In this document: positions 43,657-58,023 of the stretch, piece by piece
Layout: each line of letters starts with the position of its first letter
Position numbering within the stretch: position 1 is the stretch's first letter
Assembly (NCBI GenBank): GCA_046348995.1
Contig: JAXMDB010000008.1
Location: 211,525 to 275,524, forward strand
Direction: 5' to 3'
DNA: 64,000 bases
Source of the DNA: Hyphomicrobiaceae bacterium
Lineage (GTDB): Bacteria > Pseudomonadota > Alphaproteobacteria > Rhizobiales > Hyphomicrobiaceae
Notes under the pieces: generated by a model
Database searches by the model: none
What the model was told of the DNA's origin: nothing
What the model saw: only the letters and a program-made list of their open reading frames with translations
Made by a program: the position numbers and the translations under genes

Positions 43657-44706
43657 TTAACCGGCAGCGTTCGTCTTGGTGCCGGGGCGTGTCCGTGGCG
43701 CATTGCCGCCGGCCTCCCGCCAGCCGAGCCGGCCGGCGAGCGAGACGAGTCCGTTCGGCAGCAAGAGCACCGTCGCCACGACCACGACGCCGAGCACGAT
43801 CAGCCGATAATTGTCGAAGGAGCGCAGCAGCTCGTTGCCGATGATGACGATGAAGGCACCGATGAGAACGCCCGGAAACCGGCCCATGCCGCCGACGGCG
43901 AGCATCACCATCGCCATCAGGAAGAACTCGTTGCCGAGGATCTTGGGCGTCACCACCGTCGTGTAGTGGGCATAGAGCGCACCCGCCAACCCCGCGAAGG
44001 CCGCCGAGATCGTGAAGGCCAACAGCTTGTACTTGAAATCGTCGATACCGAGCGCGCGGGCGAAGCCTTCCGAATCGCGCAACGCCACGAAGGCGTGACC
44101 GAGCCGGCTCCTCAGCAGCACAAAGTAAATGAGGTAGACCGAGACCGCCGCGACCGCGAGCGCGAGATAGTACCAGCCGAGCTTGTCGAGCGGACCGATG
44201 ACGTAGCCGAACAGGTTGACCGGCGGGATGCCGAGGAGACCCGTGTTGCCGCCGAGGCCGAGGTCGCGGCCTTGCTGGATGACGGGCGGCATGGCGAGAT
44301 GCACCGCGAAGGTGAAGAGCGCCACGTACTCCCCGCGCAGTCTCAGACACGGCAGACCCATCAGCACGCCGATCAGCCCGGTCGCCGCCGCACCGATCGC
44401 CATCGACACCAGCGGCGTCACGCCGAGCTTTGCTGCAAGAAACCCGGACGTGTAGGCGCCGAAGGCGAAGAACACGAGCTGGCCGTAGTTCATGATGCCG
44501 GCATAGCCGACGACGAGGTCCCAGGAGGCGGCGACCATCGCCCACAGGAAGCAGAGGATCAGGATGTGCAGCACATAGCTGCTGCCGACGAAGAACCCGG
44601 CCACGGCGAGCGCCGCGACGGCGAGCCAGAACCATGGGCCCGCCCAAGCCGGCGGCATGCCGGTGCCGGCGAGCGAGGCGGACGAGGAGCGCGATGCCGA
44701 TGCCAT
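43657..44706 (-). CDS. livM: Branched-chain amino acid ABC transporter permease LivM-type
   Basis: Polytopic permease with the conserved LivM core. 349 aa. Confidence 0.85.
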   Translation of the reverse strand: MASASRSSSASLAGTGMPPAWAGPWFWLAVAALAVAGFFVGSSYVLHILILCFLWAMVAASWDLVVGYAGIMNYGQLVFFAFGAYTSGFLAAKLGVTPLVSMAIGAAATGLIGVLMGLPCLRLRGEYVALFTFAVHLAMPPVIQQGRDLGLGGNTGLLGIPPVNLFGYVIGPLDKLGWYYLALAVAAVSVYLIYFVLLRSRLGHAFVALRDSEGFARALGIDDFKYKLLAFTISAAFAGLAGALYAHYTTVVTPKILGNEFFLMAMVMLAVGGMGRFPGVLIGAFIVIIGNELLRSFDNYRLIVLGVVVVATVLLLPNGLVSLAGRLGWREAGGNAPRTRPGTKTNAAG

Positions 44707-44710
44707 GCCG

Positions 44711-45583
44711 TCAGGCCTCCCACTTGCCGAGCAGGCCCTTGGGGCGGACCATGAGGACGACGAGCAGCGTCAGAAGCCAAATCGGCAGCGTCCAGACCGG
44801 CCCGACGTAGAACACGACGAACGCCTCGATGAGCGCCAGCAGGAACGCCGCGATACAAGCGCCACGTGTGCTCCCTAGCCCGCCGAACACGACGATGACG
44901 AAGGCCTTGAGGAACGGCGCCCAACCGCCGAGCGGAGAAACAAGATAGAGCGGCGCGAGCAGCACGCCGGCGAGCCCCGTCAGCACCACCGAGAGACCGA
45001 AGGTGAAGGCGAACACCTGGTTGACGTCGATGCCGACCTGCGCCGCGCCTTGCATATCTTGCGCAACCGCCCGGACCGCTTGTCCGAACATCGTCGCGGT
45101 GAGAAAGACCTCCAGCGCCAGCACGATACCGAGCGCGATCATCAGCATCCATAGCCGATAGATCGCGATCGTAGTGCCGAGGACCTGGACCGTCCCGTCC
45201 GCAAAGGCAGGGATGACTTGCGGCACGGCGCCGAACATGACCTGGAACAGATTATCGAGCAGGAAGGCGAGCCCCAGCGTCGCCATCATGATCGTCGTCT
45301 TCCAGTTCGGCCCCGCACGCAGCGGCCGGACGATGCCGCGCTCGAGCGCGACGCCGATCAGGAAGAGGATGGGGATGAGCAAAAGGATGCCCGCCCATAG
45401 CGGCAGTCCGAGATAGCCGGCTGTCAGCACCCAGCAGATGTAGCCGCCGGCCGTGTAGAGCGAGCCATGAGCGAAGTTGAGCACCCGCGCCGTGCCGTAG
45501 ACCATCGACAGACCGACGGCGATGACGCAATAGACGGCACCTTGTGCGATGCCGCCGAACACCACCTCGATGATCTGTTGCAT
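44711..45583 (-). CDS. livH: Branched-chain amino acid ABC transporter permease LivH-type
   Basis: MQQIIEVVFGGIAQGAVYCVIAVGLSMVYG is the canonical LivH start. 290 aa. Confidence 0.9.
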   Translation of the reverse strand: MQQIIEVVFGGIAQGAVYCVIAVGLSMVYGTARVLNFAHGSLYTAGGYICWVLTAGYLGLPLWAGILLLIPILFLIGVALERGIVRPLRAGPNWKTTIMMATLGLAFLLDNLFQVMFGAVPQVIPAFADGTVQVLGTTIAIYRLWMLMIALGIVLALEVFLTATMFGQAVRAVAQDMQGAAQVGIDVNQVFAFTFGLSVVLTGLAGVLLAPLYLVSPLGGWAPFLKAFVIVVFGGLGSTRGACIAAFLLALIEAFVVFYVGPVWTLPIWLLTLLVVLMVRPKGLLGKWEA

Positions 45584-45593
45584 GAGGGGTCTC

Positions 45594-46262
45594 CTAGCCG
45601 GCCGCCGTGGCCGGAGCGGCTAAACGAATGACGCCCTCCTCCAGCGTGTAGACGCGGCGGACGAGCCCTTCGATGAGCGCCAGGCTCTGCTCCACGAGCA
45701 GGATCGTGATCCCCTGCTGGTTCAAGCGCGACACCGTCTCGAGCATCGACTCGACGAGATTGGGGGCGAGGCCGAGCGAGGGCTCGTCGATGGCGAGGAG
45801 CTCAGGCGCCGACATCAGCCCGCGGCCAAGCGCCAGCATCTGCGCTTCGCCACCGCTGAGCGTCCGGGCGAGCTGCGACTGCCGCTCCGCCAGCCGCGGA
45901 TAGAGGCCGAGCACGAGATCGAGGTTTTCCTGCCGTTTCGCGCGAGCGTGCGGGGCGTACGCCCCGAGCATCAGGTTCTCTTTCACCGTCATGTCGGGAA
46001 ACAGCCGCCGATCCTCGGCGACGTAGGCGATGCCCTCACGGACGAGATCGGGCGCCTTGCGGCCGCGAATGCTCTTTCCCTTGTAGGCGATGTCGCCACT
46101 GGCAATCGGCACGAGGCCCGAGATCGCCTTGAGCAGGGTGCTCTTGCCGTGCCCGTTGGCGCCGACGACGGCGACGAGCTCGCCTTGGCCGACATCGAGG
46201 GAAACCCCGTGCAGCACGTGGAAATCACCGTAGAAGACGTCGATATCCCGGACGCTAAGCAA
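45594..46262 (-). CDS. livF: Branched-chain amino acid ABC transporter ATP-binding protein LivF-type
   Basis: Walker A GANGHGKST, signature LSGGEAQML and Walker B LLAIDEPS. Probable TTG start at 46262 (LLSVRDIDVFYG), which overlaps the livG stop. Confidence 0.8.
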   Translation of the reverse strand: MLSVRDIDVFYGDFHVLHGVSLDVGQGELVAVVGANGHGKSTLLKAISGLVPIASGDIAYKGKSIRGRKAPDLVREGIAYVAEDRRLFPDMTVKENLMLGAYAPHARAKRQENLDLVLGLYPRLAERQSQLARTLSGGEAQMLALGRGLMSAPELLAIDEPSLGLAPNLVESMLETVSRLNQQGITILLVEQSLALIEGLVRRVYTLEEGVIRLAAPATAAG

Positions 46263-47049
46263 GGTTGCGCTTCCCGAGATAGATGCGGATGACGTTGTCG
46301 TCCTTGAGCACCCGCTCGGGCGTATCGAGGATGAGGACGCTGCCGAAGTTGAGGATGAGCATGCGCTGCGAGATCGCCGAAAGCGCGCGGATCTTGTGCT
46401 CGACCACCACGAAGGTGACCCCGAGCTTCGCATAGAGGTCCTTCACGAGCGCCGCGAAACTGTCGACCTCCTCCGCGTTGAGGCCGCCGAACGGCTCGTC
46501 CATGAAGACGAGCTTCGGCCCGGTCGCCAGCGCCGCCGCCAGCATGACACGCTTGCGGGTCAGGAGATCGGCGCTCGAGACCGGCCGGCCGGCGTCGCTC
46601 GAAAGCCCGGTAACGGCGAGCGCCGCCTCGACCGCGTCGCTCAAATCGGCGCCGCCTGATTTGTCGGCGAGCCCGAAGCGGGCGCCGGTCCAGACGTTGT
46701 CGCGCACCGACATCGAGTGAAAGACCTGCGGGATCTGGAAGGTGCGGGCGACGCCGGCGCGGCAGAAGATGTGCGGCCGCCGTCCGGCAAGATCGCCGCC
46801 CTCGACGAGGACGCGGCCCGAGCTCGGCGCGAGCGCGCCCGTGCAAACGTTGAGGAGCGTCGTCTTCCCCGCCCCGTTCGGCCCGGCGATGCCGAGGATC
46901 TCGTGAGGGCGAATGTCGAAGGAGACGTCGGAGAGCGCCTTGAGCGCGCCGAACCGGCGTCCGACCGCGTCGAGACGCATCAAAGGCGACGCGACGGCCT
47001 GTGCCGCCCCGTCCGCGCCGTGTCCTGCGATCGCCTCCGCCGATGCCAT
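46255..47049 (-). CDS. livG: Branched-chain amino acid ABC transporter ATP-binding protein LivG-type
   Basis: Walker A GPNGAGKTT, signature and Walker B (LVFMDEPFGGL). 264 aa. Confidence 0.85.
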   Translation of the reverse strand: MASAEAIAGHGADGAAQAVASPLMRLDAVGRRFGALKALSDVSFDIRPHEILGIAGPNGAGKTTLLNVCTGALAPSSGRVLVEGGDLAGRRPHIFCRAGVARTFQIPQVFHSMSVRDNVWTGARFGLADKSGGADLSDAVEAALAVTGLSSDAGRPVSSADLLTRKRVMLAAALATGPKLVFMDEPFGGLNAEEVDSFAALVKDLYAKLGVTFVVVEHKIRALSAISQRMLILNFGSVLILDTPERVLKDDNVIRIYLGKRNLA

Positions 47050-47160
47050 CGGCCTCGCCCCCGAAATGTCAGGCGCGGACCATAGGGGATCGGGGAGCGG
47101 CGGGGAAGGGGCGGGGATGGAAATCAGAAGGCGCTCTTACCGCCCCCAGCACCCACCCCA

Positions 47161-48522
47161 CTACTCGTCCGCCAGCGCATACTTCTTGAGCAGCCGGTAC
47201 GTATTGCGCTCGCTGATGCCGAGCACCTCGGCGATGCGGGAGCGGTGGCCGTTGTATTTGACGACGAGGTCGCCGATGTAGCGGCGCCTGATTTCCTCGA
47301 GCGTCGGCTCGTGGTCGAAGCTCAGCACCGACTGATCGGCTCCCGCGCCCGGCGTGCCCTGCAGCATGATGTGGCCGGCATGGATGACCGGTGCGTCGCC
47401 CGAGACGAGGATCGCGCGCTCGATGACGTTCCTGAGCTCGCGGATGTTGCCGGGCCACGCGTAGCTCGTCAGCAGGTCGATCGCATCCTTGCCGAGCCGC
47501 TTCATCTTCGCGCGCTGGAACGAGCGCGTCTCGAGGAAGCGGTCGGCGATGAGCGCGATGTCCTCGCGCCGGTGGCGGAGCGGCGGCACATTGATGAGCA
47601 CGGTCGCCAGGCGATAGTAGAGGTCGGAGCGGAAGCGGGCGTCGTCGATGAGCCCGAGCAGGTTGCGGTTGGTCGCGGCGACGAAGCGGACGTCGCTCGA
47701 CAGGCTCTGCACGCCGCCGACGCGCCGGAACTCTCCCGTCTCGAGCACGCGCAGCAACTTCGCTTGCATGCCCGCCGGCAGCTCGCCGATCTCGTCCAGG
47801 AAGACGGTGCCGCCTTCGGCAACCTCGATGAGGCCGTCCTTGCGGCGCTCGGCCCCCGTGAAGGCGCCGCGCTCGTGGCCGAACAGCTCCGACTCGAACA
47901 GCGTGTCCTGCAGCGTCGTCGCGTCGATGGCGACGAAGTTCGATTTTGCCCGCTGCGACAGGAGATGGATCGACTTCGCCACCAGCTCCTTGCCGACTCC
48001 ACTCTCGCCCTCGATCAGGATCGTCGAGTTGGAGGGCGCGACGAGCTCGATCAGGCGCACCATCTCGAGGAAGGCCGGGCTGCGGCCCACCATCAATTGT
48101 GTGAGGCTCGGATTGAGCTGATCGCGGTAGTAGTCGAAGCTGCGCTTGAGCGAGCTCGTCTCCAGAACGCGATTGACGGCGAGCTCGAGCTCGGACGGAT
48201 TGACCGGCTTGACGAGGTACTCGGCGGCGCCCGCCCGCATGCTCTCGACCGCCTGCTTGATGCTGCCGCTCGCCGTCAGCACGATGACCGGGCAATGCGT
48301 CGTCAGCTCCGGCAGGCACGCGCTGCCTTCGGCATCCGGCAGCTTCATGTCGAGCATCACGAGCGAGGGGTCGCCGGCATGCAGCGCCGCCTTGGCCTCG
48401 ACCCAGGTGTGCGCACTCGTCGTGAAGTGCCCCATGCGCCGCATCTGCTCGACGAGCAGCCGGTTGAGAGTCCGGTCGTCCTCGATGACGAGAACGCGCT
48501 TGCTGTGACGTGCCGCTTTCAT
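47161..48522 (-). CDS. Sigma-54-dependent response regulator (NtrC/Fis family enhancer-binding protein)
   Basis: Receiver domain (D in MLDMKLP). AAA+ sigma-54 interaction domain with Walker A GESGVGKE, the GAFTGA motif (ERGAFTGAE) and Walker B (FLDEIGEL). C-terminal Fis-type HTH. 453 aa. Confidence 0.9.
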   Translation of the reverse strand: MKAARHSKRVLVIEDDRTLNRLLVEQMRRMGHFTTSAHTWVEAKAALHAGDPSLVMLDMKLPDAEGSACLPELTTHCPVIVLTASGSIKQAVESMRAGAAEYLVKPVNPSELELAVNRVLETSSLKRSFDYYRDQLNPSLTQLMVGRSPAFLEMVRLIELVAPSNSTILIEGESGVGKELVAKSIHLLSQRAKSNFVAIDATTLQDTLFESELFGHERGAFTGAERRKDGLIEVAEGGTVFLDEIGELPAGMQAKLLRVLETGEFRRVGGVQSLSSDVRFVAATNRNLLGLIDDARFRSDLYYRLATVLINVPPLRHRREDIALIADRFLETRSFQRAKMKRLGKDAIDLLTSYAWPGNIRELRNVIERAILVSGDAPVIHAGHIMLQGTPGAGADQSVLSFDHEPTLEEIRRRYIGDLVVKYNGHRSRIAEVLGISERNTYRLLKKYALADE

Positions 48523-50369
48523 GGGAGAGCCGCCTGTCGATCGGCCGACGGCATGGTGATGCGGAATCGCGTGCCCGAACCGCTCTTGCTCTCGACCGTG
48601 ATGGTGCCGCCCCAGCTTTTCAGGATCTCGCGACAGATCGGCAGGCCGAGGCCGGTGCCGTGCGCGCCATCGGCCCGGCGGCTCCAGAACGGCTCGAAGA
48701 TGCGCTGCTGATGCTCGAGAGGAATGCCGCAGCCGGTGTCGGCGAAATCGATCTCGAGGGAGTCGCCCGCGCGGCGGCCGGTGATCGTCAGCACGCCGCC
48801 TTCGGGCATGGCGTGAAACGCGTTCTGGGCGATGTTGAGCGCGAGCATGCGCATGTCGCTGTCGCTGGCGATGACTCTGAGATCGGGCGCGATCGCAGAC
48901 CGGATCTCGATCTTGCCCCCTAGAGCCTCGGCCGACAGGAGCGAGAGCGTATCGGCGACCACGTCGTTGAGGACGACGAGCTCGGGCTCTCCGCTCGACG
49001 GCGAGGACAGTTTGAGAAGCCGCTCCGTCACCTCGATGCAGCGGCCGATCTGCTGCTCGATCACCGGCACATAGGTGCGCGCGCCATCAAACCGCTCCTC
49101 GGCGATCTCGCGGCTGACGGCGCTCAGGCCGAACTGGATGGACGCCAGCGGATTGTGAATCTCGTGGGCGACGCCGGCGGCGAGGTAGCCGATCTCCGAC
49201 AGCCGCTGCTCCTGCGAGACCTTCAAGTCCTGGCTCAGATCGCGCACGACCTCGACGATCACATCGCGCCGCTCGCCCTTCACCTCGATCGACAACGGGG
49301 CGGCGGACACCTCGACATAATACTGCGTCGCGTCCTTGCGCACGTGACGATGCCGGCAGCTGACTTGGGATTGGCCCTTGCGCATCTCCTCGAGCGGACA
49401 CGTGACAAGCGTCGGCGCGCAGGGCCGGTCGCGACCGTGGCTCGAGAGGTAGCAAGGTCCGCCGACGATCTCGCCGCGTGCGTAGCCCGTCTGCGCCGCG
49501 AAGGCCGTGTTCGCCATAAGTACGGTGTAGTCGGCGTCGATGACGCGCACGCCGTCGGGCATGCCGTCGATGAGCGCCTGCAGGTTGGCCTCGCGCCGCT
49601 CGATGCTGCGAATGCCGTCGCCGATCTTTGCGGCCATGGCGTTGAACGATCTGGCGAGCGCTGCCATCTCGTCATGACCGCGCTCGGGCAGGCGCTCTTC
49701 CAAATAGCCATGCGCGATCGCCGCAGTCGCCGCGTCGAGACGCGCGAGCGGCGCGAGCACTGCCCGGTGCAGAACCGAAGCGATGCCGGCGATGGCGACC
49801 GCGAGCACCGTGCCGCCGGCGCCGCCGAGTGCCAAGGTCGCGCGGAGGATGTTGCCGAGGATGGAGCCGTCGGCATAGTCGACGACGATCGTGGACGCGG
49901 CGTCCCCGCCGCGGGCAAGCGTCGCCACGGTTCGCATGACGTCGCCTCGGTCGCCCTCGACGACACCGGCGCGTATCCCCTCACGCCCCTCGACCGGCCG
50001 GCACTCCGGACAGGTCCGATCCGTGACAGCTACCGTGGCTGTCCCGGTCGCGGCAAGCACCGTTCCATCGCGCGCCAAAACCGCGATTCCCACGACACCC
50101 GGATGCTGGCCGGCCGCGTCGATGGCCGTCCGCAGGGCCGCGCGATCGGACAGCGGCGCGCGGCTCTCGAGCGTGGCCTGTGCGAGATCGCTGATCGCTA
50201 CCGCGGCGTTCGTGCGATCCGACAGCATGTGGTTGCGATAGGCGAGCATCAGGATGAGGAGAAAGAAGAGCGAGGCGAGTGACGGGATGACGATCACGGT
50301 CATGAGCAGCCGGCGGCGCAGGCTGCCTGCTATCCAGTCCCGAACCGCTGAGACCGCTCGCATGCTCAT
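48519..50369 (-). CDS. PAS domain sensor histidine kinase (membrane; HAMP-like, PAS, HisKA, HATPase_c)
   Basis: TM helix (LLMTVIVIPSLASLFFLLILMLA), several Cys clusters (CPECRP; CYLSSHGRDRPCAPTLVTCP), H-box (GVAHEIHNPLASI) and ATPase boxes (DTGCGIP, GTGLGLPI). The probable start is the internal ATG at about 50369, adjacent to the upstream gene's stop. The ORF track extends to 50441. Confidence 0.85.
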   Translation of the reverse strand: MSMRAVSAVRDWIAGSLRRRLLMTVIVIPSLASLFFLLILMLAYRNHMLSDRTNAAVAISDLAQATLESRAPLSDRAALRTAIDAAGQHPGVVGIAVLARDGTVLAATGTATVAVTDRTCPECRPVEGREGIRAGVVEGDRGDVMRTVATLARGGDAASTIVVDYADGSILGNILRATLALGGAGGTVLAVAIAGIASVLHRAVLAPLARLDAATAAIAHGYLEERLPERGHDEMAALARSFNAMAAKIGDGIRSIERREANLQALIDGMPDGVRVIDADYTVLMANTAFAAQTGYARGEIVGGPCYLSSHGRDRPCAPTLVTCPLEEMRKGQSQVSCRHRHVRKDATQYYVEVSAAPLSIEVKGERRDVIVEVVRDLSQDLKVSQEQRLSEIGYLAAGVAHEIHNPLASIQFGLSAVSREIAEERFDGARTYVPVIEQQIGRCIEVTERLLKLSSPSSGEPELVVLNDVVADTLSLLSAEALGGKIEIRSAIAPDLRVIASDSDMRMLALNIAQNAFHAMPEGGVLTITGRRAGDSLEIDFADTGCGIPLEHQQRIFEPFWSRRADGAHGTGLGLPICREILKSWGGTITVESKSGSGTRFRITMPSADRQAALP

Positions 50370-50839
50370 TGCCGCGCGAGCCGGAGCAGGAGCGATTCTT
50401 GGGGTGCCTCGTCGGCATCGATCTCGACCACGCGCGAGCATCGCGCCGGCAAATCGGCCTCGTGCGCGGCAATCGGGATGACGACGGGGTGGCCCCGCGG
50501 CGTATCGAGGAAATGCGCGAGAAACGCACGACGCTCGCTCGCGGGCTTCGTCGCCAAGAGCGCCTCGGCATTCTGCAACACCAGACCGGAGGGCGCGATG
50601 CCATCGGCGATCGCCTCGTCGATGGCGGTGAGGGGCAAGCGTGCGGCGTCCCAGCCGAGCGGCTTCAGGCGCTCAGCACGGAAATCCACATACGCAAGTC
50701 CCAGCGCGCGCGCCATCTCCTCGACGAGTGCGGGGTGATAGCGCGTCAGCTTGGCGATGAAGCCACCCCGGCGGCCGTGCGCATCGAGGCATGCCTCGAT
50801 GGCGGTCAACCAGCGCGGTGCACCGGGCTGCTGGGTCAT
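50366..50839 (-). CDS. Hypothetical protein (157 aa), first gene of the kinase/EBP operon
   Basis: It is co-oriented with, and abuts, the kinase gene. No signal peptide or recognisable motif. Confidence 0.45.
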   Translation of the reverse strand: MTQQPGAPRWLTAIEACLDAHGRRGGFIAKLTRYHPALVEEMARALGLAYVDFRAERLKPLGWDAARLPLTAIDEAIADGIAPSGLVLQNAEALLATKPASERRAFLAHFLDTPRGHPVVIPIAAHEADLPARCSRVVEIDADEAPQESLLLRLARQ

Positions 50840-51193
50840 CTCCTAATCTCTCGCGATTCCATTTGGGTAAGCGCCCCCACGGCGTCCCCCGATCGGGACG
50901 CCCTCTGCGCTCACGATGTGTGCATTGTTTCTCTGCTAATGGGCTCGCGCTTTGCGCCCGATCAATTCGGATGAGCGAGTTGATCAGCGCTCGTCCTACC
51001 CGATCGGCGCTACCCCCGAAGCGAGCCTGACAAGTTGTCCGAAGCGAAAAGCGAGGCGAAACAAGGCAAACCGGTTGGCAACCCAAAAGCGACCCGACAG
51101 AATGGCAGATTCGCTGAGCCGATCCGGAGTTGAAATCACCCAGGCTAAGTCATAAGCTATTGTTTTTAAATCACTATTTTATCGTCGGTAAGG

Positions 51194-51210
51194 TTGGCAC
51201 ACGGCTTGCT
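51194..51210 (+). promoter_or_regulatory. Sigma-54 (RpoN) -24/-12 promoter
   Basis: TTGGCACacggcTTGCT matches the TGGCAC-N5-TTGCW consensus with the conserved GG and GC dinucleotides correctly spaced. It sits ~50 nt upstream of the ATG at 51258 and is preceded by an unusually AT-rich stretch (51150-51185) with an IHF-like AATCACTATTTTA. Confidence 0.65.
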
Positions 51211-51257
51211 GTGACGAGGTTCGTTAACGAATTCTCACTCGAGCAAGGTCGCATCGT

Positions 51258-51587
51258 ATGTTCGCAGCCGATCGCCGTCGGGTCGCAAATCTCCGCTCCG
51301 TGTTCGCCGCATCGCTCATCGTGCCATGTCTCGCCGTGCCCGCAGTCGCTGCGGGGCAGGCGTGGATCGCGGGGACTGCTCCCTCCATGCGCCCGGCCGA
51401 CGCGCCAGTGCTGGCGGCGGTCGACCACGACAAGGCTTGGTTCAAGCGAGCGCTGGCTGGCGTCTCGAAACCGGTACCGCCGAGCCTCGATTTTCTGAAG
51501 GATCAGGGCGGCTGGTTCACACCGTTCACGCACCCCGGAATGACGGGGCGCTACGACATTCGCAACCTCCACAACCAAGAGCCCTAG
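51258..51587 (+). CDS. Small secreted hypothetical protein (109 aa), first gene of the sigma-54 operon
   Basis: Signal peptide (AASLIVPCLAVPAVAAGQA). The conserved-looking C-terminus (GWFTPFTHPGMTGRYDIRNLHNQEP) matches no family I recognise. Confidence 0.5.
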   Translation: MFAADRRRVANLRSVFAASLIVPCLAVPAVAAGQAWIAGTAPSMRPADAPVLAAVDHDKAWFKRALAGVSKPVPPSLDFLKDQGGWFTPFTHPGMTGRYDIRNLHNQEP

Positions 51588-51719
51588 CCAACCGAACGTC
51601 TGGCAGAGCGCCAATCCCTTGGTGCGCTGCCGATAGCTGATCGCTGGGCTGCGATCGAACGCATGTGGCGGCCCCCAGCCCGAAACCGGGACCGCCTCGC
51701 AATACAGGAGCTTGAAACT

Positions 51720-52184
51720 ATGAAACGTATCGCAGCTGTCGCCGCCATCGCCCTCCTCTCCTCGTTCGGCGCTGCCTTCGCCGAGGACGAGCAGGCCGGC
51801 ATGTCCGGCATGAGCGGCATGTCCGGCATGGCCGGCGGCAACGCCGACTGGGTTTGCACGATGTGGGTCGACGCCGGCCAGATCGGCATGTCCGGGATGG
51901 GCGGCATGTCGGGCATGGGCGGCATGAATGGCATGAGTGGCATGGACGGCATGTCGGGCATGAATGGCATGTCGGGCATGGACGGCATGAGCGGCATGAA
52001 TGGCATGTCCGGCATGGATGGCATGAACGGCATGTCCGGGATGGATGGCATGAGCGGCATGAACGGCATGTCGGGCATGAACGGCATGTCCGGGATGGAC
52101 GGCATGTCGGGCATGAGCGGCATGGGCGGTCAGCCCGGCCAGGCTTGCGCTCAGTGGACGCACAAGACGCAGGTGAAGCAGTAA
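51720..52184 (+). CDS. Secreted methionine-rich Gly-Met-X tripeptide-repeat protein
   Basis: ATG 51720 preceded by CAGGAG. Signal peptide MKRIAAVAAIALLSSFGAAFA. About 31 GM(S/N/D/G) tripeptide repeats are bracketed by Cys residues (DWVCTMW ... QACAQWTHK). The underlying DNA is a 9-bp tandem array ggcatg(tcc/agc/aac/gac). Confidence 0.8.
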   Translation: MKRIAAVAAIALLSSFGAAFAEDEQAGMSGMSGMSGMAGGNADWVCTMWVDAGQIGMSGMGGMSGMGGMNGMSGMDGMSGMNGMSGMDGMSGMNGMSGMDGMNGMSGMDGMSGMNGMSGMNGMSGMDGMSGMSGMGGQPGQACAQWTHKTQVKQ

Positions 52185-52283
52185 TCGCACCTGCCCGGGT
52201 GGAGGCTGCGGAACCCGCGTCCGCGGTCTCTACCCGGACTTCTCAGATCCTTTGCATGCGAATGCGTTTCGCGAGGGGGCGAA

Positions 52284-53201
52284 ATGAAAAGGCAGTATGG
52301 CCTCGTGCCAGTCGTCGGAGCCGTTGCGATTTTGGCGGCAGGTCTGCTGCTCAGTCTGGGGGAGGGCGGCCGGTCAGGTGCTGGAGCTCAAGCAGGCCAG
52401 ACCGGATCGACCTCTCCCAGCGCCATCGAGGAGCTCGCCAAGGCGAAAAAGTCCTATCCCCGCGCCGTGTGGACACCATTGCACTTCACGCCCGCCATCG
52501 ACACGGCGACGAACGAGCAATGCCTCACCTGCCATCAGGAGATTCTGAAAGCGAAGGTTCGCGAGGTGTCGCCAGCCGGTCTTGCCGCCGCGGACACCAC
52601 CGCTTGGTATCAGACGCTCGACACCTATGCGGGCAAGCAGGAAACCTTCCACGCCCGCCACTTGAAGACGCCGCTCGCCAAGGAGGTCATGAACCTCACC
52701 TGCAATTTCTGCCATCGCGGCCACGATCCGCGTGAGGAGATGCCGGGCTCGAGCGCGACGACGACAGCAGCGGCCCTCGGCGATTTCACTTTCCGCAAGA
52801 CCGTCAATCCGTCGAAAACCTGCCTCCTTTGCCACGGCCGCTACCCGCAAGAGGTCATGACCGGAGTTGAGGGCTCCTGGCCCGAGGCCCGCAAGACCAT
52901 CGAGGATGCGTCCTCGCCGGATACACAGAACGGCTGCCTCGTCTGCCACAACATGGACGCCGGCATCCGCACAGTTCGCCATCAGGTGAGCTACCTCAAG
53001 GCCGACGCCATCGAGGCGCGGGCCAAGAAAGGCTCCTCCGACCTCTGCTACGGCTGCCACGGCGGACGTGCCTGGTACCGCATCAGCTACCCCTACCCGC
53101 GCCACCCGTGGAAGGACATGCCGGACGAGATGCCCGACTGGGCCAAGAGCCGGCCGACCGCCTCCGACCCGCGCTACGCGCTCGACAAGAAGACACCGTG
53201 A
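52284..53201 (+). CDS. Pentaheme c-type cytochrome (membrane-anchored or secreted)
   Basis: N-terminal hydrophobic segment (LVPVVGAVAILAAGLLLSL). Five CxxCH motifs: CLTCH, CNFCH, CLLCH, CLVCH, CYGCH. RBS GAGGGG. Confidence 0.85.
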   Translation: MKRQYGLVPVVGAVAILAAGLLLSLGEGGRSGAGAQAGQTGSTSPSAIEELAKAKKSYPRAVWTPLHFTPAIDTATNEQCLTCHQEILKAKVREVSPAGLAAADTTAWYQTLDTYAGKQETFHARHLKTPLAKEVMNLTCNFCHRGHDPREEMPGSSATTTAAALGDFTFRKTVNPSKTCLLCHGRYPQEVMTGVEGSWPEARKTIEDASSPDTQNGCLVCHNMDAGIRTVRHQVSYLKADAIEARAKKGSSDLCYGCHGGRAWYRISYPYPRHPWKDMPDEMPDWAKSRPTASDPRYALDKKTP

Positions 53202-53212
53202 GGGATGCCGTC

Positions 53213-55807
53213 ATGATCGACCCGAAACACGCGGGCAGCTGGCACGTCGAGACGCCCGTTCGCCTGAACCTCAATCGCCGCGATGTGCTCCGCGGACTGC
53301 TGGCGTCGAGCGCCATCGGCCTCGTGCCGCTCACCACGCTGACCTCGAGCAAGCCAGCCGCGGCCTTCGCCTACGAGCCATACCCAAAGGACGACGAGCT
53401 GACGACGGTCGTCACCAGCTGCGCGCACAATTGCGGCTCGCGTCATATGCTGGTCGCGCACAAGAAGGGCGACGTCATCGTCCGTCTGTCGACCGACGAC
53501 GGCCGCTATCAGGAGGACGGCTTCTTCGGCAAGGACACCGAGGAGGAGCCGCAGATCCGTGCCTGCCTGCGCGGCCGCTCCTACCGCTCGCGCCTCTATT
53601 CGCCCGAGCGCCTGCTCTATCCGATGAAGCGGGTCGGCAAGCGCGGCGAGGGCAAGTTCAAACGCGTGTCGTGGGACGAGGCGTTGGGCGGCATCGCCGA
53701 GAAGATGACGGAGATCAAGGCAAAGTACGGCCCGACCGCGCTGCTCGACCAGAGCTACGCCGGCGCCTCCTATGGCGTGCTGCACAAGTCGGATCAGATC
53801 GAAGGCCTGCTCGGCCGCTTCCTCGGCATGTTCGGCTGCCGCACGAACTCGTGGTCGGTGCCGTCCTATCAGGCGACGACCTTCTCCTCGCGCATGACCT
53901 TCGGCACCATCGAGGATGGCAACGAGGACGACACCTTCGCGCACTCCAAGCTCATCATCATGTGGGGCTGGAATCCGGCCTACACCTTCCACGGCGGCAA
54001 CACGTTCTACTACATGCGGCTCGCCAAGCAGCGCGGCTGCAAGTTCGTGCTCGTCGACCCGCAATACACGGACTCGGCCTCTGTCTATGACGCCTGGTGG
54101 ATCCCGATCCGGCCCAACACGGACGCCGCGATGCTTGCCGGCATGGCCCACCACATCTTCACCAACAACTGGCACGACCAAGCCTTCATCGACCGCTTCT
54201 GCCAGGGCGTGGATGCCGGCACGATGCCCCAGTGGGCCAAGGGCAAGGAGAGCTTCAAGGACTATATCCTCGGCACCATGGACGGGCAGCCGAAGACGCC
54301 CGAGTGGGCGGCCGAGATTTGCGGCGTCAAAGCCGAGGACATCAAGAAGCTCGCCGAGATGTATGCGACGACGAAGCCTGCGGCATTGAAAGCGTCGTGG
54401 GCGCCCGGCCGCAATGCATACGGCGAGCAGTACAGCCGCATGGCCGCCGCCGTGCAGGCGATCACCGGCAACATCGGCAAGCTCGGCGGGTCGTCGGAAG
54501 GCGTCGGCAAGGCCTGGCATCCGGAGGCGGTCGCCTATCCCTACGACGAGAACGCCAACATCTGGTTCGCCTCGATCAAGTCGGACCGCTGGGCGCACTG
54601 CGTGCTGAACTACCCCAACGTCAAGCGCGAGGAGATCGGTTGCTGGCCGAGGAACGACAAGCTCGACGGCACCATTCCCAACATCAAGGGGATCTTCTGG
54701 CAGGGCTCGGACTGGTTCAACCAGCTGACGAACATCAACAAGATGATCGAGGCGGTGCAGAAGCTCGAGCTCGTCGTCTGCATGGACTCGACGATCACGC
54801 CGTCAGGACTTTGGGCCGACTACCTGATCCCGATCGCCACGCATTTCGAGCGGCATGACACGGCGCTGCCCTGGTACAAGGGCCACTACTACATCCATCG
54901 CCCGCGTGTGATTGCCCCGCTCGGCGAGAGCCGCACGGATATCCAGGTCTTCACCGAGCTCGCCTATCGCCTGGAAGAGCTCGATCCGAAGACCCTCAAA
55001 GACTTCGGCAAGCGCTACAATCCGCGCGCGACCCGGGACTATTTCAACGACAATACCGCCGTCGACGAGGAGTATCTGACCCACTGGTGGAACGAGAAGG
55101 TGATGAAGCACCAGGGCGTCACCATGAGCTGGGAGGACTTCAAGAAGCACGGCGTCTACAAATTCAAGCTCGCCGAGCCGCACGTGGCTTTCCGCCAGCA
55201 GATCGAGACCGGGCTGCCGTTCTTGACCCCGTCGGGCAAGATCGAAATCCTCTCCTCGACCCTCGCGCAATACAAGGACTGGACGAAGACCGCCTACGGC
55301 TACGAGATTCCGGCGATCCCGAAGTGGATCGAGCCGTGGGAGTGGCTCGGCAACAAGGAGAAGACGGGCAAGCACCCGTTCCATCTGATCTCGCCGCATC
55401 CACGCTGGCGGACACACTCGATCTTCAACAACATCCCGTGGCTGCGCGAGACCTTCGAGCAGGAGGTGACGCTCAACGCCGCCGACGCCGCCAAGCTCGG
55501 CATCAAGACCGGCGACACGGTCGAGGTGTTCAACGATCGCGGCAAGTGCGTCGTGCCGGCCTACGTCACCGAGCGCTGCATGCCGGGCGTCGCGGTGTTG
55601 CACGAAGGGGCGTGGATGGATCTCGACAAGAACGGCGTCGACCGCGCGGGCAACCCGGACTTCCTGACCTTGGACGAGCCCTCGCCAGCCGGTGCCTTCG
55701 CCTACAACACCGTGCTCGTGAACATCGCCAAGTCGGAGCTCGAGCATCGCCCGGGCTGGGACCGGCTCGCGACCGCGCGCTCGTCCGTCTTCCGCCGCGA
55801 CATGTAA
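53213..55807 (+). CDS. Tat-exported molybdopterin oxidoreductase catalytic subunit (DMSO reductase family)
   Basis: Twin-arginine signal (NRRDVLRGLLASSAIGLVPL). It has the molybdopterin oxidoreductase fold, a molybdopterin dinucleotide-binding C-terminal domain and an atypical N-terminal Cys motif (SCAHNCGSRH...IRAC). 864 aa. Confidence 0.9.
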   Translation: MIDPKHAGSWHVETPVRLNLNRRDVLRGLLASSAIGLVPLTTLTSSKPAAAFAYEPYPKDDELTTVVTSCAHNCGSRHMLVAHKKGDVIVRLSTDDGRYQEDGFFGKDTEEEPQIRACLRGRSYRSRLYSPERLLYPMKRVGKRGEGKFKRVSWDEALGGIAEKMTEIKAKYGPTALLDQSYAGASYGVLHKSDQIEGLLGRFLGMFGCRTNSWSVPSYQATTFSSRMTFGTIEDGNEDDTFAHSKLIIMWGWNPAYTFHGGNTFYYMRLAKQRGCKFVLVDPQYTDSASVYDAWWIPIRPNTDAAMLAGMAHHIFTNNWHDQAFIDRFCQGVDAGTMPQWAKGKESFKDYILGTMDGQPKTPEWAAEICGVKAEDIKKLAEMYATTKPAALKASWAPGRNAYGEQYSRMAAAVQAITGNIGKLGGSSEGVGKAWHPEAVAYPYDENANIWFASIKSDRWAHCVLNYPNVKREEIGCWPRNDKLDGTIPNIKGIFWQGSDWFNQLTNINKMIEAVQKLELVVCMDSTITPSGLWADYLIPIATHFERHDTALPWYKGHYYIHRPRVIAPLGESRTDIQVFTELAYRLEELDPKTLKDFGKRYNPRATRDYFNDNTAVDEEYLTHWWNEKVMKHQGVTMSWEDFKKHGVYKFKLAEPHVAFRQQIETGLPFLTPSGKIEILSSTLAQYKDWTKTAYGYEIPAIPKWIEPWEWLGNKEKTGKHPFHLISPHPRWRTHSIFNNIPWLRETFEQEVTLNAADAAKLGIKTGDTVEVFNDRGKCVVPAYVTERCMPGVAVLHEGAWMDLDKNGVDRAGNPDFLTLDEPSPAGAFAYNTVLVNIAKSELEHRPGWDRLATARSSVFRRDM

Positions 55808-55819
55808 GGGGGCACCACG

Positions 55820-56491
55820 ATGGCCAACGCCAAAAAGCTCGACAGGACGCAGGTGGACGAGGCAATCGCGCGCCGCGACCGCGCCACCTACGAGCCCGTC
55901 AAACCCGAATTGCAGCTCGGCTTCATTCACAACAACGTCGACTGCATCGGTTGCCGCGCCTGCGAGATCGCCTGCAAGGACAAGAACGGACTGCCGCCGG
56001 GCCCGCGCTTCCGCCGCGTCATGTACGTCGAGGGCGGCACGTTCCCGGAGGTCTTCGCCTACAAGGTGAACATGTCATGCAACCACTGCGCGGAGCCGGC
56101 CTGTCTGCCGTCGTGCCCGACGGGCGCGATCTTCAAACGTGAGAAGGACGGTATCGTCGATATCGACTCGACGCTGTGCATCGGCTGCCGCCGGTGTGAG
56201 GCAGCCTGCCCGTTCGGGGCGCCGCAGTACATCCCCGAGTCCAACATCGTCGCCAAGTGCAACATGTGCGTCGACGAGATCGAAGCCGGCCGCAAGCCCT
56301 ACTGCGTCATGGCCTGCATGATGCGCGTGCTCGACATCGGCCCGATCGACAAGTTGCGGGACGGCACCTGGGAGACGAAGGCGCGCGGCCCTCAGGATAC
56401 GGTCGTCGGCCAAGTGCAGAACATGGCCGACCCCGAGCTCACCCATCCCTCGATCGTCTACGTGGCCCATCCGAAAGGCGTGGTGAAGTGA
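55820..56491 (+). CDS. 4Fe-4S ferredoxin-type electron-transfer subunit (DmsB-like, four clusters)
   Basis: Four Cys clusters: CIGCRACEIAC...C, CNHCAEPACLPSCP, CIGCRRCEAACP, CNMCVDEIEAGRKPYCVMAC. No signal peptide, as expected for Tat hitch-hiking with the catalytic subunit. Confidence 0.9.
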   Translation: MANAKKLDRTQVDEAIARRDRATYEPVKPELQLGFIHNNVDCIGCRACEIACKDKNGLPPGPRFRRVMYVEGGTFPEVFAYKVNMSCNHCAEPACLPSCPTGAIFKREKDGIVDIDSTLCIGCRRCEAACPFGAPQYIPESNIVAKCNMCVDEIEAGRKPYCVMACMMRVLDIGPIDKLRDGTWETKARGPQDTVVGQVQNMADPELTHPSIVYVAHPKGVVK

Positions 56492-57246
56492 TGCGCACAG
56501 TGTCGATCGCGAGGCGCGAGGAGCCGTCTGCTGAGAGCCAGCTCCGCCAAGCGGTCGCCGCCGATCTGCGACTGCTCGCTGCCCTTCACGATCGAGAGCC
56601 GACGGCCGCCCTGCTCGACGAGTTGCGGCGCGCACCGTTCGCCTCGCGACTCGGTCTCGTGCTCGACAGCGAAGGCGCGCGGCAGGCGCTTGCGGCCTTC
56701 GACGGTGCGCTCGCTGCACTGCCGGCCACCATCGATGGGAGCGTCGTCGACGATCTTGCGGCAGGATACGCCGACATCTACCTGACGCATCACTTGCGTG
56801 CGTCGCCCCTCGAGTCGGTCTGGCTCGACGAGGATCACCTCGTCCGCCAGGAGCCGATGTTCGAGGTTCGCAAGTGGTACCGGCACTACGGCCTCGGCAC
56901 CGCCGATTGGCGCAACCGGCCGGACGATCACCTCGTGCTCGAGCTTCAGTTCATCGCCGAGCTCGTCAGTCTGGAAGCAGCGCCTGCCGCACTTGGCGAT
57001 GCGGCCCGCTTCCTCGACGAGCACCCTCTCAAATGGATCGGCCTGTTCGCAGAGCGTGTGGCCACGAAGGGCGGACACGACTATTTCGCGGCGCTGGCGC
57101 TCTTGACCTCGGGCTATCTGCACGAGCTGCGGGCACGGCTGACGACCATTACCGGGATCGGCGTTCCCCTTGTCGCCGAGGCCAAGGACTCGGACAGGCT
57201 CCGGACATCCCCGGATCCGTCAAAACCTCAGACGGCGGGGTGCTGA
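56491..57246 (+). CDS. TorD/DmsD family redox-enzyme maturation chaperone
   Basis: ATG 56491 overlaps the upstream stop. All-helical, with TorD-like conserved Trp/Asp/His context (RPDDHLVLELQFIAEL). Confidence 0.7.
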   Translation: MRTVSIARREEPSAESQLRQAVAADLRLLAALHDREPTAALLDELRRAPFASRLGLVLDSEGARQALAAFDGALAALPATIDGSVVDDLAAGYADIYLTHHLRASPLESVWLDEDHLVRQEPMFEVRKWYRHYGLGTADWRNRPDDHLVLELQFIAELVSLEAAPAALGDAARFLDEHPLKWIGLFAERVATKGGHDYFAALALLTSGYLHELRARLTTITGIGVPLVAEAKDSDRLRTSPDPSKPQTAGC

Positions 57247-57284
57247 GCCGAGCTTCCGGAGGTGCCGGGGTGCCGTCCGGCCCG

Positions 57285-57722
57285 CTATTTGTTCCGGTCA
57301 CCCTTGCCCAGCTCATCGACGTAGAACCGCACGAGCTTCACCAGCCGGTCCCGGCTTTCCGACGTCGGCAAGCTCGTGAGCAGTTGGGCGACCTCCCGGC
57401 ATTGGGCCTCCAGGCGGGTCTCGCTGAGCTGGCTTTCGAGCTGCGCCTCTCCATCGCCGGGGGTCTCGAAGAACCACTCGATCGGCGTCGACAGCGCCTT
57501 GGCGATATCGAGCAAGCGCATCGCGGGAACGCGATTGACGCCCGTTTCGTACTTGTGCAGCTGCTGGAACGAGACGCCGAGTTGATCGGCCAATTGCCAC
57601 TGCGTTATGCCAAGCACTGCGCGCCGCCGCTTGATTTGGCGGCCGATGCCCGCGTCGTGCTCTGTGACACTCCGGGAGGCCCCGGTACCCTCTGCAGGAC
57701 GTGCACGCCTCGAACTGCTCAC
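57285..57722 (-). CDS. XRE family (Cro/C1-type HTH) transcriptional regulator
   Basis: HTH LGITQWQLADQLGVSFQQLHKYETGVNRV. The N-terminal extent is uncertain. Confidence 0.7.
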   Translation of the reverse strand: MSSSRRARPAEGTGASRSVTEHDAGIGRQIKRRRAVLGITQWQLADQLGVSFQQLHKYETGVNRVPAMRLLDIAKALSTPIEWFFETPGDGEAQLESQLSETRLEAQCREVAQLLTSLPTSESRDRLVKLVRFYVDELGKGDRNK

Positions 57723-57870
57723 AGCATCGCCTCTTGCTCAGGTATTTCGCGGGGAATGCATCCTCCTAACACGGGGTAGCCGTGAGGGAAACACCTGTGA
57801 AGCTTAACATGCCGCAAGTATCGGCGGCCGGCCCACGAGCTAGCCGCCGATCCTGAGTGAAGGCGATCGC

Positions 57871-58023
57871 CTATTTCGACAGCTCGTCGACGAGGTTGAC
57901 CGGGATCATCACGATGCCCTCGGCGGCCTTGACGATGTCGCCGACGGGATCGGGCTCGCCAGCCATCACGGCCGGGCTCGAAAAGGCGACGAGAACGCAC
58001 GCAAGCATGAGCTTCTTCACCAT
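57871..58023 (-). CDS. Candidate 50-aa secreted small protein (not in the ORF track, which has a 60-aa cutoff)
   Basis: The reverse-complement reads MVKKLMLACVLVAFSSPAVMAGEPDPVGDIVKAAEGIVMIPVNLVDELSK*. It has a signal-peptide-like N-terminus with an AXA site. Confidence 0.3.
   Translation of the reverse strand: MVKKLMLACVLVAFSSPAVMAGEPDPVGDIVKAAEGIVMIPVNLVDELSK

Follow-up and report, generated by a model that had tools for sequence, protein, structure and literature searches.

What does a sigma-54-type two-component cassette control when it lies divergently next to an operon for a periplasmic molybdenum (Mo) enzyme, through which DNA sites does it act, and which signal does it read? This question is raised by a 64,000-nucleotide stretch of contig JAXMDB010000008.1 (positions 211,525 to 275,524) from a Hyphomicrobiaceae bacterium, the whole of which is called the window here. 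The regulatory cassette comprises p157, a sensor histidine kinase (HK) and a sigma-54 enhancer-binding protein (EBP); across the intergenic region begins the target operon, which encodes p109, a methionine-rich (Met-rich) repeat protein, a pentahaem cytochrome, a DmsAB-like reductase and a TorD-type chaperone. An initial annotation, made from the letters of the window, had described the divergent cassette as facing a sigma-54 promoter. All its genes proved to be present, and its linkage to the operon was found in every arrangement seen among related loci.

As far as comparative sequence analysis can tell, the wiring that leads from the kinase to the EBP, two palindromes, a DNA bend, the sigma-54 promoter and finally the target operon is well supported. 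The best overall explanation, which we consider likely, would couple this wiring to a redox signal and to the reduction of methionine sulfoxide (MetSO) as output. The target operon is undescribed, and the wiring is that of the textbooks while the controlled system is new; literature searches turned up no account of the operon, none of proteins with GMSGM repeats, and none of a Mo enzyme to which a haem-c/sigma-54 kinase is linked.

The sigma-54 promoter

The element TGGCACACGGCTTGC (51195-51209, plus strand) was the sole exact match to TGGCAC-N5-TTGC in the 64 kb, where 0.10 matches were expected from shuffled sequences. Its GC is 49 nucleotides (nt) from the ATG of p109. The annotation had reported this promoter and placed it 420 bp away from the cassette, a figure which agrees with the length of the whole intergenic region (418 bp) and not with the distance between the start of the -24 element and the ATG of p157, which is 356 bp. 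The element is invariant in three related loci with the same divergent layout (L013, L015, and L016), while the adjacent upstream AT tract drifts. In addition, the orthologous operon is preceded by TGGCACGCAAGCTGCA in Sterolibacteriaceae genomes and by TGGCATGGCTTGTGCA in Dechloromonas sp. HYN0024. A metagenome scan with the p109 alignment yielded at least 277 relatives, from which 80 loci were kept, 77 of them with at least 150 nt of upstream sequence. Within 380 nt upstream, a -24/-12 element scoring at least 10/11 was present in 37 of the 77 loci, about 55 times the background (0.0088 per 380 nt), and perfect elements were found in 16 loci and nowhere in 816 kb of background sequence. Since dozens of lineages show the element at the corresponding position, the predicted promoter is taken to be real and widely conserved.

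It could be argued that TGGCAC-N5-TTGC occurs by chance and that a sigma-70 promoter serves the operon; in favour of this there is a single weak sigma-70-like match at 51075-51103. This is very improbable in view of the low chance expectation per window, the recurrence of the element together with co-positioned activator sites and bend, and its absence where the EBP is missing, as in an Azospirillum locus, in which the operon is accompanied by a dCache hybrid kinase without EBP and no -24/-12 element was found. The exact promoter pattern had no match in the first 12 loci either; these contigs end before the 5' region of the operon, so this null result does not count against the promoter. Another GG-N10-GC element, TGGCAACCCAAAAGCG (51076-51091), scored 7/11. 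Both of its dinucleotides persist in L013 and L015, and the element overlaps the sigma-70-like match and the near-palindrome GCAAACCGGTTGGC.

Activator sites and DNA bend upstream of the promoter

Every 5+5 palindrome was enumerated de novo over 300 nt of upstream sequence for 36 promoters. The most frequent was TGACA-N3-TGTCA (13 loci), followed by TGCCA-N3-TGGCA (8 loci), and the common pattern TG[AC]CA-N3-TG[GT]CA, with at most one mismatch, was present upstream of 34 of the 37 promoters, whereas background sequence has 0.036 per 300 nt. The positions of these putative upstream activator sites (UAS) are strikingly fixed, at about -100 and -165 from TGGCAC in most of the 37 promoters, and a third site was seen near -235 to -260 in some of them. 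The window has both of the main sites; UAS1 is its only TGACA-N3-TGTC and is conserved in L013-L016.

The spacer that leads to the promoter holds the core AATCACTATTTTA (51169-51181), with one mismatch to WATCAANNNNTTR, the motif of integration host factor (IHF). Of 36 promoters, 16 have an IHF-like core with at most one mismatch in their 88-nt spacer, where the expectation is 0.038; most of these cores stand 20-31 nt upstream of TGGCAC. The average guanine plus cytosine (GC) content was 0.46 in the spacers versus 0.58 locus-wide and, in the window itself, about 0.51 over 51000-51299 versus 0.62-0.72 in the flanking genes. These comparative data agree with the AT-rich IHF-like tract which the annotation had noticed before the promoter, the window spacer having 34% GC, and with the layout of UAS, bend and -24/-12 element proposed there, since two palindromes stand at fixed distances in most promoters. 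The inverted repeats that it had expected between 50840 and 51190 were located by sequence comparison at 51028-51040 and 51095-51107, as predicted binding sites. Drawn from about 37 independent promoters, this map, in which a -24/-12 element is combined with an IHF-like bend and a pair of palindromes whose distances are fixed, is precise and testable.

The regulatory operon and its activator

ATGA start/stop overlaps were observed at both the p157/HK and the HK/EBP junctions, and overlaps of 4 nt or 1 nt also join the cassette genes in relatives. The open reading frame (ORF) listed for the kinase (48519-50441, minus strand) is longer than the 616-amino-acid (aa) reading adopted here. On the evidence of the two overlaps, the true start is most likely the ATG at 50369, and p157, HK, and EBP are read as one translationally coupled minus-strand operon.

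The EBP matched Response_reg (PF00072, 66 bits), Sigma54_activat (PF00158, 213 bits, E 2.9e-63, with a cut-off of 20.2 bits), and AAA_lid_14 (PF25601). It carries the motifs GESGVGKE, FLDEIGE, and GAFTGA, the latter encoded from 47868, in agreement with the NtrC-type AAA+ activator with a GAFTGA loop of the annotation. Its receiver contains D58, the putative phospho-acceptor, within LVMLDMKLPD, which is kept in all orthologues (50-68% identity), and a putative C-terminal Fis-type helix-turn-helix (HTH) segment, ISERNTYRLLKKY, is conserved among them. Its NCBIfam scores were all under the equivalog cut-offs (AtoC 375/714, NtrC 346/559, ZraR 313/760, and NtrX 321/600). By sequence, the EBP is thus placed among the enhancer-binding response regulators of the NtrC type, where it has no named orthologue, and identity with AtoSC or ZraSR is ruled out by these curated cut-offs.

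In the mechanism that we propose, the membrane kinase would phosphorylate the activator, probably on D58, and the activator would bind both palindromes. The IHF-like bend (51130-51194) would loop it onto the sigma-54 holoenzyme closed at TGGCAC-N5-TTGCT (51195-51210), and ATP hydrolysis via the GAFTGA loop would open the promoter. Transcription would then extend over 51258-57246, from p109 through the Met-rich protein, the cytochrome and the DmsAB-like reductase to the TorD chaperone. The features involved are provided in Table 1.

Table 1. Coordinates in the window of the regulatory operon, the intergenic sites and the target operon.
Feature	Position	Strand	Description and basis
EBP gene	47161-48522	-	453 aa, NtrC-type sigma-54 response regulator; Pfam and NCBIfam scores
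Sensor HK	48519-50369	-	616 aa from ATG 50369; Pfam, ATGA overlaps, hydropathy, AlphaFold
PAS site codons	49398-49454	-	C306-x3-H310-x6-C317-x6-C324-P325; candidate Cys3His metal/Fe-S site
Haem-c motif deletion site	49890-49920 (approximate)	-	Alignment of operon-linked kinases
CPEC codons	50001-50012	-	C120 and C123; between the two transmembrane segments (hydropathy)
p157	50366-50839	-	157 aa; first gene of the regulatory operon
Inverted repeat	50960-50985		GATCAATTCG-N6-CGAGTTGATC; repeat search, conserved block in the alignment of L013, L015, and L016
UAS1	51028-51040		TGACAAGTTGTCC; predicted EBP site, at -167 relative to the -24 element
UAS2	51095-51107		CGACAGAATGGCA; another predicted EBP site, at -100 relative to the -24 element
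AT-rich spacer	51130-51194		34% GC (composition); holds the IHF-like core
Sigma-54 promoter	51195-51210	+	TGGCACACGGCTTGCT; GG 51196-7, GC 51208-9; predicted start near 51221
p109	51258-51587	+	Small exported protein, first gene of the target operon; motif GGWFTPFxxPGMTGxYDLRxxH
Met-rich repeat protein	51720-52184	+	154 aa from MKRIAAV; signal peptide; predicted periplasmic
Pentahaem c-type cytochrome	52284-53201	+	Membrane-anchored; 5 CXXCH
Molybdopterin catalytic subunit	53213-55807	+	DmsA/DorA type; exported by the twin-arginine (Tat) route; PF00384, PF01568
DmsB-like Fe-S subunit	55820-56491	+	Four clusters; PF13247; TIGR02951 195.7 versus cut-off 214.1
TorD/DmsD-family chaperone	56491-57246	+	Tat proofreading; PF02613 E 1.9e-22; last gene of the target operon

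With respect to the control of the cassette itself, a sigma-54 element for the regulatory operon was sought on the minus strand and none was found in the window, so that sigma-54 autoregulation is unsupported there. The inverted repeat at 50960-50985 could be the operator/promoter region of this operon. A palindrome upstream of the Sterolibacteriaceae promoter, TCAATTC-CC-GAATTGA, resembles it. In three loci the cassette (polyferredoxin-p157-HK) is detached from the enzyme genes and is preceded, at a distance of about 110 nt, by a UAS palindrome without mismatch, TGCCAATCTGGCA (L017 373, L018 580, and L022 103). No sigma-54 element was found near these palindromes, whose position may indicate autoregulation by the EBP through another mechanism.

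The sensor kinase

The kinase consists of a first transmembrane segment (TM1, residues ~21-44), a periplasmic domain of ~135 aa, a second transmembrane segment (TM2, ~179-205), and HAMP, PAS, HisKA, and HATPase_c domains. HisKA (PF00512) and HATPase_c (PF02518) were matched with 36 and 90 bits, respectively, and HAMP and PAS were also matched. H402, in HisKA, and E403 are invariant in an alignment of 57 kinases, and the NCBIfam scores were again under the equivalog cut-offs (AtoS 210/646, ZraS 155/479). The AlphaFold model reached a predicted local distance difference test score (pLDDT) of 86 overall and a moderate 56-80 in the periplasmic domain.

The operon-linked kinases share a near-invariant periplasmic sequence, C-x2-C-H-G ... 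P-x-N-G-x-L-V-V-D-Y, which is a haem-c attachment motif. A periplasmic CXXCH is present in at least 90% of the 57 kinases of this architecture and in all 19 further operon-linked kinases. Moreover, the orthologous kinase of Sterolibacteriaceae passed PF21563 (Mcp40H-20_sensor) with 29.2 bits (cut-off 27), a family for which no match was obtained in the window kinase. Haem-bearing and haem-deleted sensor domains coexist in this family, which makes it a natural experiment.

The annotation had seen a cluster of cysteines in and around the PAS region. This is correct for C306, C317, C324, and C338, which belong to the PAS domain; CPEC lies between the two transmembrane segments and is therefore periplasmic and outside that domain. 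CPEC was found in only some orthologues, and the same position is a second CXXCH in some. By comparison, C306, C317, C324, and P325 are invariant in the 57 kinases, H310 is kept in the PAS motif listing, and C338 is unconserved beyond the close family. An exhaustive search over 1.8 billion representative proteins, which superseded a word-indexed search of the PAS segment that gave 3 proteins only, showed the motif C-x(9-13)-C-x6-CP in 117 of the best 150 matches, the set examined, many of them large multi-PAS proteins. The cluster is a genuinely conserved site and probably binds a metal or an iron-sulfur (Fe-S) cluster, and the redox or metal sensor suggested in the annotation is plausible. 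This Cys3His site is very widespread and uncharacterised, and no solved structure with the triad motif was found among the PDB sequence matches.

The flavin-binding motif of light-oxygen-voltage (LOV) photoreceptors is GXNCRFLQG. The best PDB matches of the PAS segment were LOV domains (E 3e-7), with C306 aligned to the LOV cysteine; however, the segment reads GGPCYLSSHG, and a LOV photoreceptor was discarded because the flavin motif is absent from it.

The target operon

The first gene product, p109, has 24 homologues in addition to its metagenomic relatives, and no match in Pfam, NCBIfam, PADLOC, or PDB sequences. Its relatives make the operon widespread, as they occur in Hyphomicrobiales, Azospirillum, Dechloromonas, Sterolibacteriaceae, and Chromatiales. 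The GenBank call U1E49_16165 (66 aa, P0020) agrees with p109 at 100% identity over the part that they share; it appears to have been called from a later start, with the signal peptide missed.

The Met-rich protein contains 33 Met (21%) in GMSGM[GNDS] repeats and two Cys in WVCTxW/ACAQW. Most related loci have a GMSGM-repeat gene at this place in the operon, and the number of repeats rises to 56 (L097). The tandem-repeat exported proteins of the window, L097, L060, L043, and L024 have 20-28% Met and up to ~460 aa, and they always lie beside a DmsAB-like operon. The match of the window protein to Pfam 'Collagen' and the NCBIfam 'Scl' matches were rejected as artefacts of Gly repeats.

The cytochrome gave weak matches to multihaem Pfam families, including NapC/NirT (E 0.0047), has orthologues 46-61% identical, and is probably the point of electron entry from the quinol pool. 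The best solved relative of the molybdenum subunit is the Rhodobacter dimethyl sulfoxide (DMSO) reductase 1eu1; in the alignment with it (DorA numbering), the Mo ligand Ser147 and Tyr114 are conserved. Between loci of Alpha-, Beta-, and Gammaproteobacteria, this subunit keeps 72-85% identity. Its N-terminal FS0 motif (SCAHNCGSRH) is C-x3-C-x3-H, as it also is in L007 and L009, and does not end in Cys like that of E. coli DmsA. In L002 (~2808) the molybdenum gene is split by a TGA at a position where all others have a Trp codon; this was read as a sequencing error or a pseudogene, and selenocysteine was rejected. No terminator-like sites were found on the plus strand within the operon (51258-57246), and an Rfam scan of 46500-58000 gave no match.

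In Dechloromonas sp. HYN0024 (L023 15508-18486) the operon is enlarged by a quinol-dehydrogenase pair of the Fe-S/NrfD kind and by a further multihaem protein. There the Met-rich gene stands before p109, and a different small protein, of 113 aa, precedes the kinase.

Signal and output

For the family, the signal would most likely be a periplasmic redox or oxidant cue read by the haem-c sensor domain. For the window kinase, a redox- or oxidant-related signal is favoured by the haem-c sensor of the family and by the Cys-rich PAS domain, with the chances standing somewhat below even. As to the output, it can be tentatively proposed that the reductase, driven by quinol, reduces MetSO on the co-expressed Met-rich protein, which would act as a periplasmic oxidant sink. 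The proposal comes from the conserved presence, side by side, of an exported Met-rich protein and a reductase of the S-oxide type which a quinol-linked cytochrome would feed, from the conservation of Ser147 and Tyr114, active-site residues of S- and N-oxide reductases, and from the precedents of MrpX/YedY and of DmsABC, which is inducible by HOCl in H. influenzae (PMC11024254). In its fullest form, which is possible and yet doubtful, the system would be a 'methionine battery': the GMSGM protein would be oxidised by reactive chlorine or oxygen species and re-reduced by the DmsAB-type reductase via the pentahaem cytochrome, a new family of kinases with periplasmic haem c and cytoplasmic Cys3His PAS would sense the trigger, and p157, as a mimic of AAA+ proteins without P-loop, and polyferredoxin would modulate the response in one alphaproteobacterial clade. 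Should the DmsAB-like enzyme act on the Met-rich protein, the system would constitute a second type of periplasmic oxidant scavenging beside MrpX/MsrP, coupled to the respiratory chain.

Several observations weigh against this explanation. The window kinase has suffered an in-frame loss of 12 alignment columns in two blocks which removes the CXXCH, a deletion common to it and its close relatives L013 and L014. Given the missing haem motif and the pLDDT of its periplasmic domain, its input may differ from that of the family or be degenerate; with the haem site deleted, the input would come via the periplasmic CxxC, the cytoplasmic Cys3His PAS site, or p157. The PAS cysteine triad is generic to a large PAS subfamily, which includes unrelated multi-PAS proteins, so the triad alone does not identify the signal, and it may be structural (zinc) and not sensory. 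On the side of the activator, the match of the EBP C-terminus to HTH_8 (PF02954) was weak (16.8 bits, cut-off 22), and no rpoN or IHF genes were found in the 64-kb window. On the side of the enzyme, the molybdenum subunit scored 602 bits with TIGR02166 (dmsA_ynfE), under the cut-off of 777.7, and has Gly in place of Trp116 in the 1eu1 alignment, which leaves the substrate open. Finally, the GMSGM-type Met motifs could equally bind Cu(I).

The main alternative is a respiratory substrate switch, in which the kinase would sense DMSO, another S- or N-oxide, selenate or chlorate, or anoxia, and the Met-rich protein would be an accessory. In this regard, two-component control is the norm for respiratory operons of the DMSO reductase family, such as that of pcrABCD by PcrPSR and RpoN (PMC3884062). 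The quinol-linked pentahaem cytochrome, the Fe-S subunit and the TorD chaperone are as in respiratory systems, the Dechloromonas variant carries an extra NrfD/Fe-S quinol module, and the YnfE and DmsA scores of the molybdenum subunit are similar. Nevertheless, such a switch would leave unexplained why a repeat protein with 20-28% Met and p109 are the conserved promoter-proximal genes, and a haem-c sensor domain fits the sensing of redox state or gases better than the binding of oxyanions. We regard it as rather unlikely.

Met-only MxxM/MxM repeats are known Cu(I) ligands, as in the Mets motifs of Ctr1 and the Met-rich regions of CopA/PcoA. A response to copper or silver was also considered, in which the GMSGM protein would soak up Cu(I) in the periplasm and the kinase, with its periplasmic CxxC and Cys3His site, would be the metal sensor. 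It is improbable, because no copper-resistance genes (multicopper oxidase, CusF, P-type ATPase) lie beside the operon in any locus examined, the conserved partners are instead a Mo S-oxide-type reductase and a cytochrome, and the GMSGM repeats hold no His.

p157 and the cassette in related loci

A search of 5.8 billion proteins yielded only 14 homologues of p157, all of them free of Pfam domains, and p157 itself had no match in Pfam, NCBIfam, PADLOC, or PDB sequences. Its conserved columns (Y34, P36, DFR, LPL, and L-x-NAEALL) and a confident model (pLDDT 86) argue that it is a real gene. This cytoplasmic orphan has a putative ASCE/AAA+-like alpha/beta core, in which the invariant LxNAEALL would occupy the Walker-B position. 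The Walker A motif GxxxxGK[ST] is absent after strand 1, which is joined to helix 1 by T-R-Y-H-P only, with Y34 and P36 invariant.

Identity to p157 was 79-85% in three relatives with the divergent layout and 30-49% across the wider loci. The full cassette of the relatives runs polyferredoxin, p157, HK, and EBP, all translationally coupled. It is colinear after TorD in relatives, convergent with the enzyme operon in L078, and detached from it in L017-22, and it is divergent and without polyferredoxin in the window, L013-16, and L067. Its linkage to the genes for the cytochrome, the two reductase subunits and TorD holds in the colinear, divergent, and convergent arrangements. The polyferredoxin (331-347 aa, cytoplasmic, with several [4Fe-4S] clusters) is encoded 5' of p157 in L002 (5842-6882), L003 (1153-2196), L017 (487-1482), and L078 (10605-11597); a tblastn search of the window with it gave no match at E <= 1e-3.

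Most of the operon-linked HK/EBP pairs in metagenomes are without p157, which we infer to be an optional, clade-specific modulator of the kinase or the activator. Alternatively, p157 might be non-regulatory, that is, an enzyme maturation or assembly factor like its NapF-like polyferredoxin neighbour, placed upstream of the kinase by happenstance. In favour of this, it follows the poly-[4Fe-4S] protein and the TorD chaperone in most relatives, and many operon-linked pairs work without it. However, p157 stays with HK and EBP wherever the cassette is apart from the enzyme operon, be it divergent, detached, or convergent, and it is translationally coupled to the kinase, which makes a non-regulatory role rather unlikely.

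Comparison with known systems

One close parallel is the control of perchlorate reductase (pcrABCD) by PcrPSR and RpoN in Azospira suillum PS (PMC3884062). In both systems an accessory protein, an HK and a sigma-54 regulator lie beside an operon of the DMSO reductase family with an RpoN-type promoter, and the operon holds a multihaem cytochrome and a NarJ/TorD chaperone. In contrast, the PAS domains of PcrPSR are on a separate membrane protein, PcrP, and PcrS is without PAS, while the window kinase has its own Cys3His PAS. The Pcr periplasmic domains are large (~250-270 aa) and unrelated to that of the window kinase. The Pcr enzyme is of type II (NarG-like) and that of the window DmsA/DorA-like, and the accessory protein of the window is a predicted cytoplasmic AAA+-like orphan. 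AtoSC and ZraSR share with the window pair the HAMP-PAS-HisKA-HATPase membrane kinase and an activator of receiver-AAA+ type with a known or, in the window, putative HTH, and differ in sensor domain, UAS, and target genes, besides the scores far under their equivalog cut-offs.

The TorS-TorR/TorCAD and DorS-DorR/DorCDA systems have OmpR-type regulators, are sigma-70 dependent, and are not known to include a DmsB subunit or Met-rich or p109 genes. They resemble the window in the pentahaem membrane cytochrome, the periplasmic S- or N-oxide reductase, the TorD chaperone and the use of a two-component system. Periplasmic haem-c domains of the PAS/Cache-like type are known from the chemoreceptor sensors of Geobacter, and the orthologous kinases, with a single CXXCH in the ~135-aa periplasmic domain, are similar to the haem-c sensors of PF21563; the window kinase has lost this feature.

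With regard to the proposed output, HprSR-MsrPQ of E. coli offers a comparable combination of envelope sensor and periplasmic molybdoenzyme. In the MrpX/YedY (MsrP) system, regulated by SigF-NrsF, hypochlorite is scavenged by sacrificial oxidation of Met and re-reduction, and MrpX has 20% Met (PMC4436054). Like MrpX/MsrP, the window encodes an exported protein with ~20% Met together with a periplasmic molybdoenzyme and a dedicated envelope sensor. The reductase is nevertheless a bis-molybdopterin guanine dinucleotide enzyme of the DmsAB type, with Fe-S subunit and pentahaem cytochrome, and not of the YedY/sulfite-oxidase fold with YedZ. The regulator is a two-component system with sigma-54, as opposed to the sigma factor of ECF (extracytoplasmic function) type or OmpR-type two-component system of the MrpX and HprSR systems, and the Met-rich protein, unlike MrpX, consists of GMSGM units in a long tandem array.

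Flanking genes

Judged from their translations alone, the genes on either side of the two operons seem ordinary, and the window was found to hold no EBP gene besides that of the cassette. The minus-strand ORFs adjoining the 3' end of the EBP gene (43657-47049) resemble a branched-chain amino-acid ATP-binding cassette (ABC) transporter of the LivFGHM type, and an ORF beyond the target operon (59683-62682) resembles DNA polymerase I.

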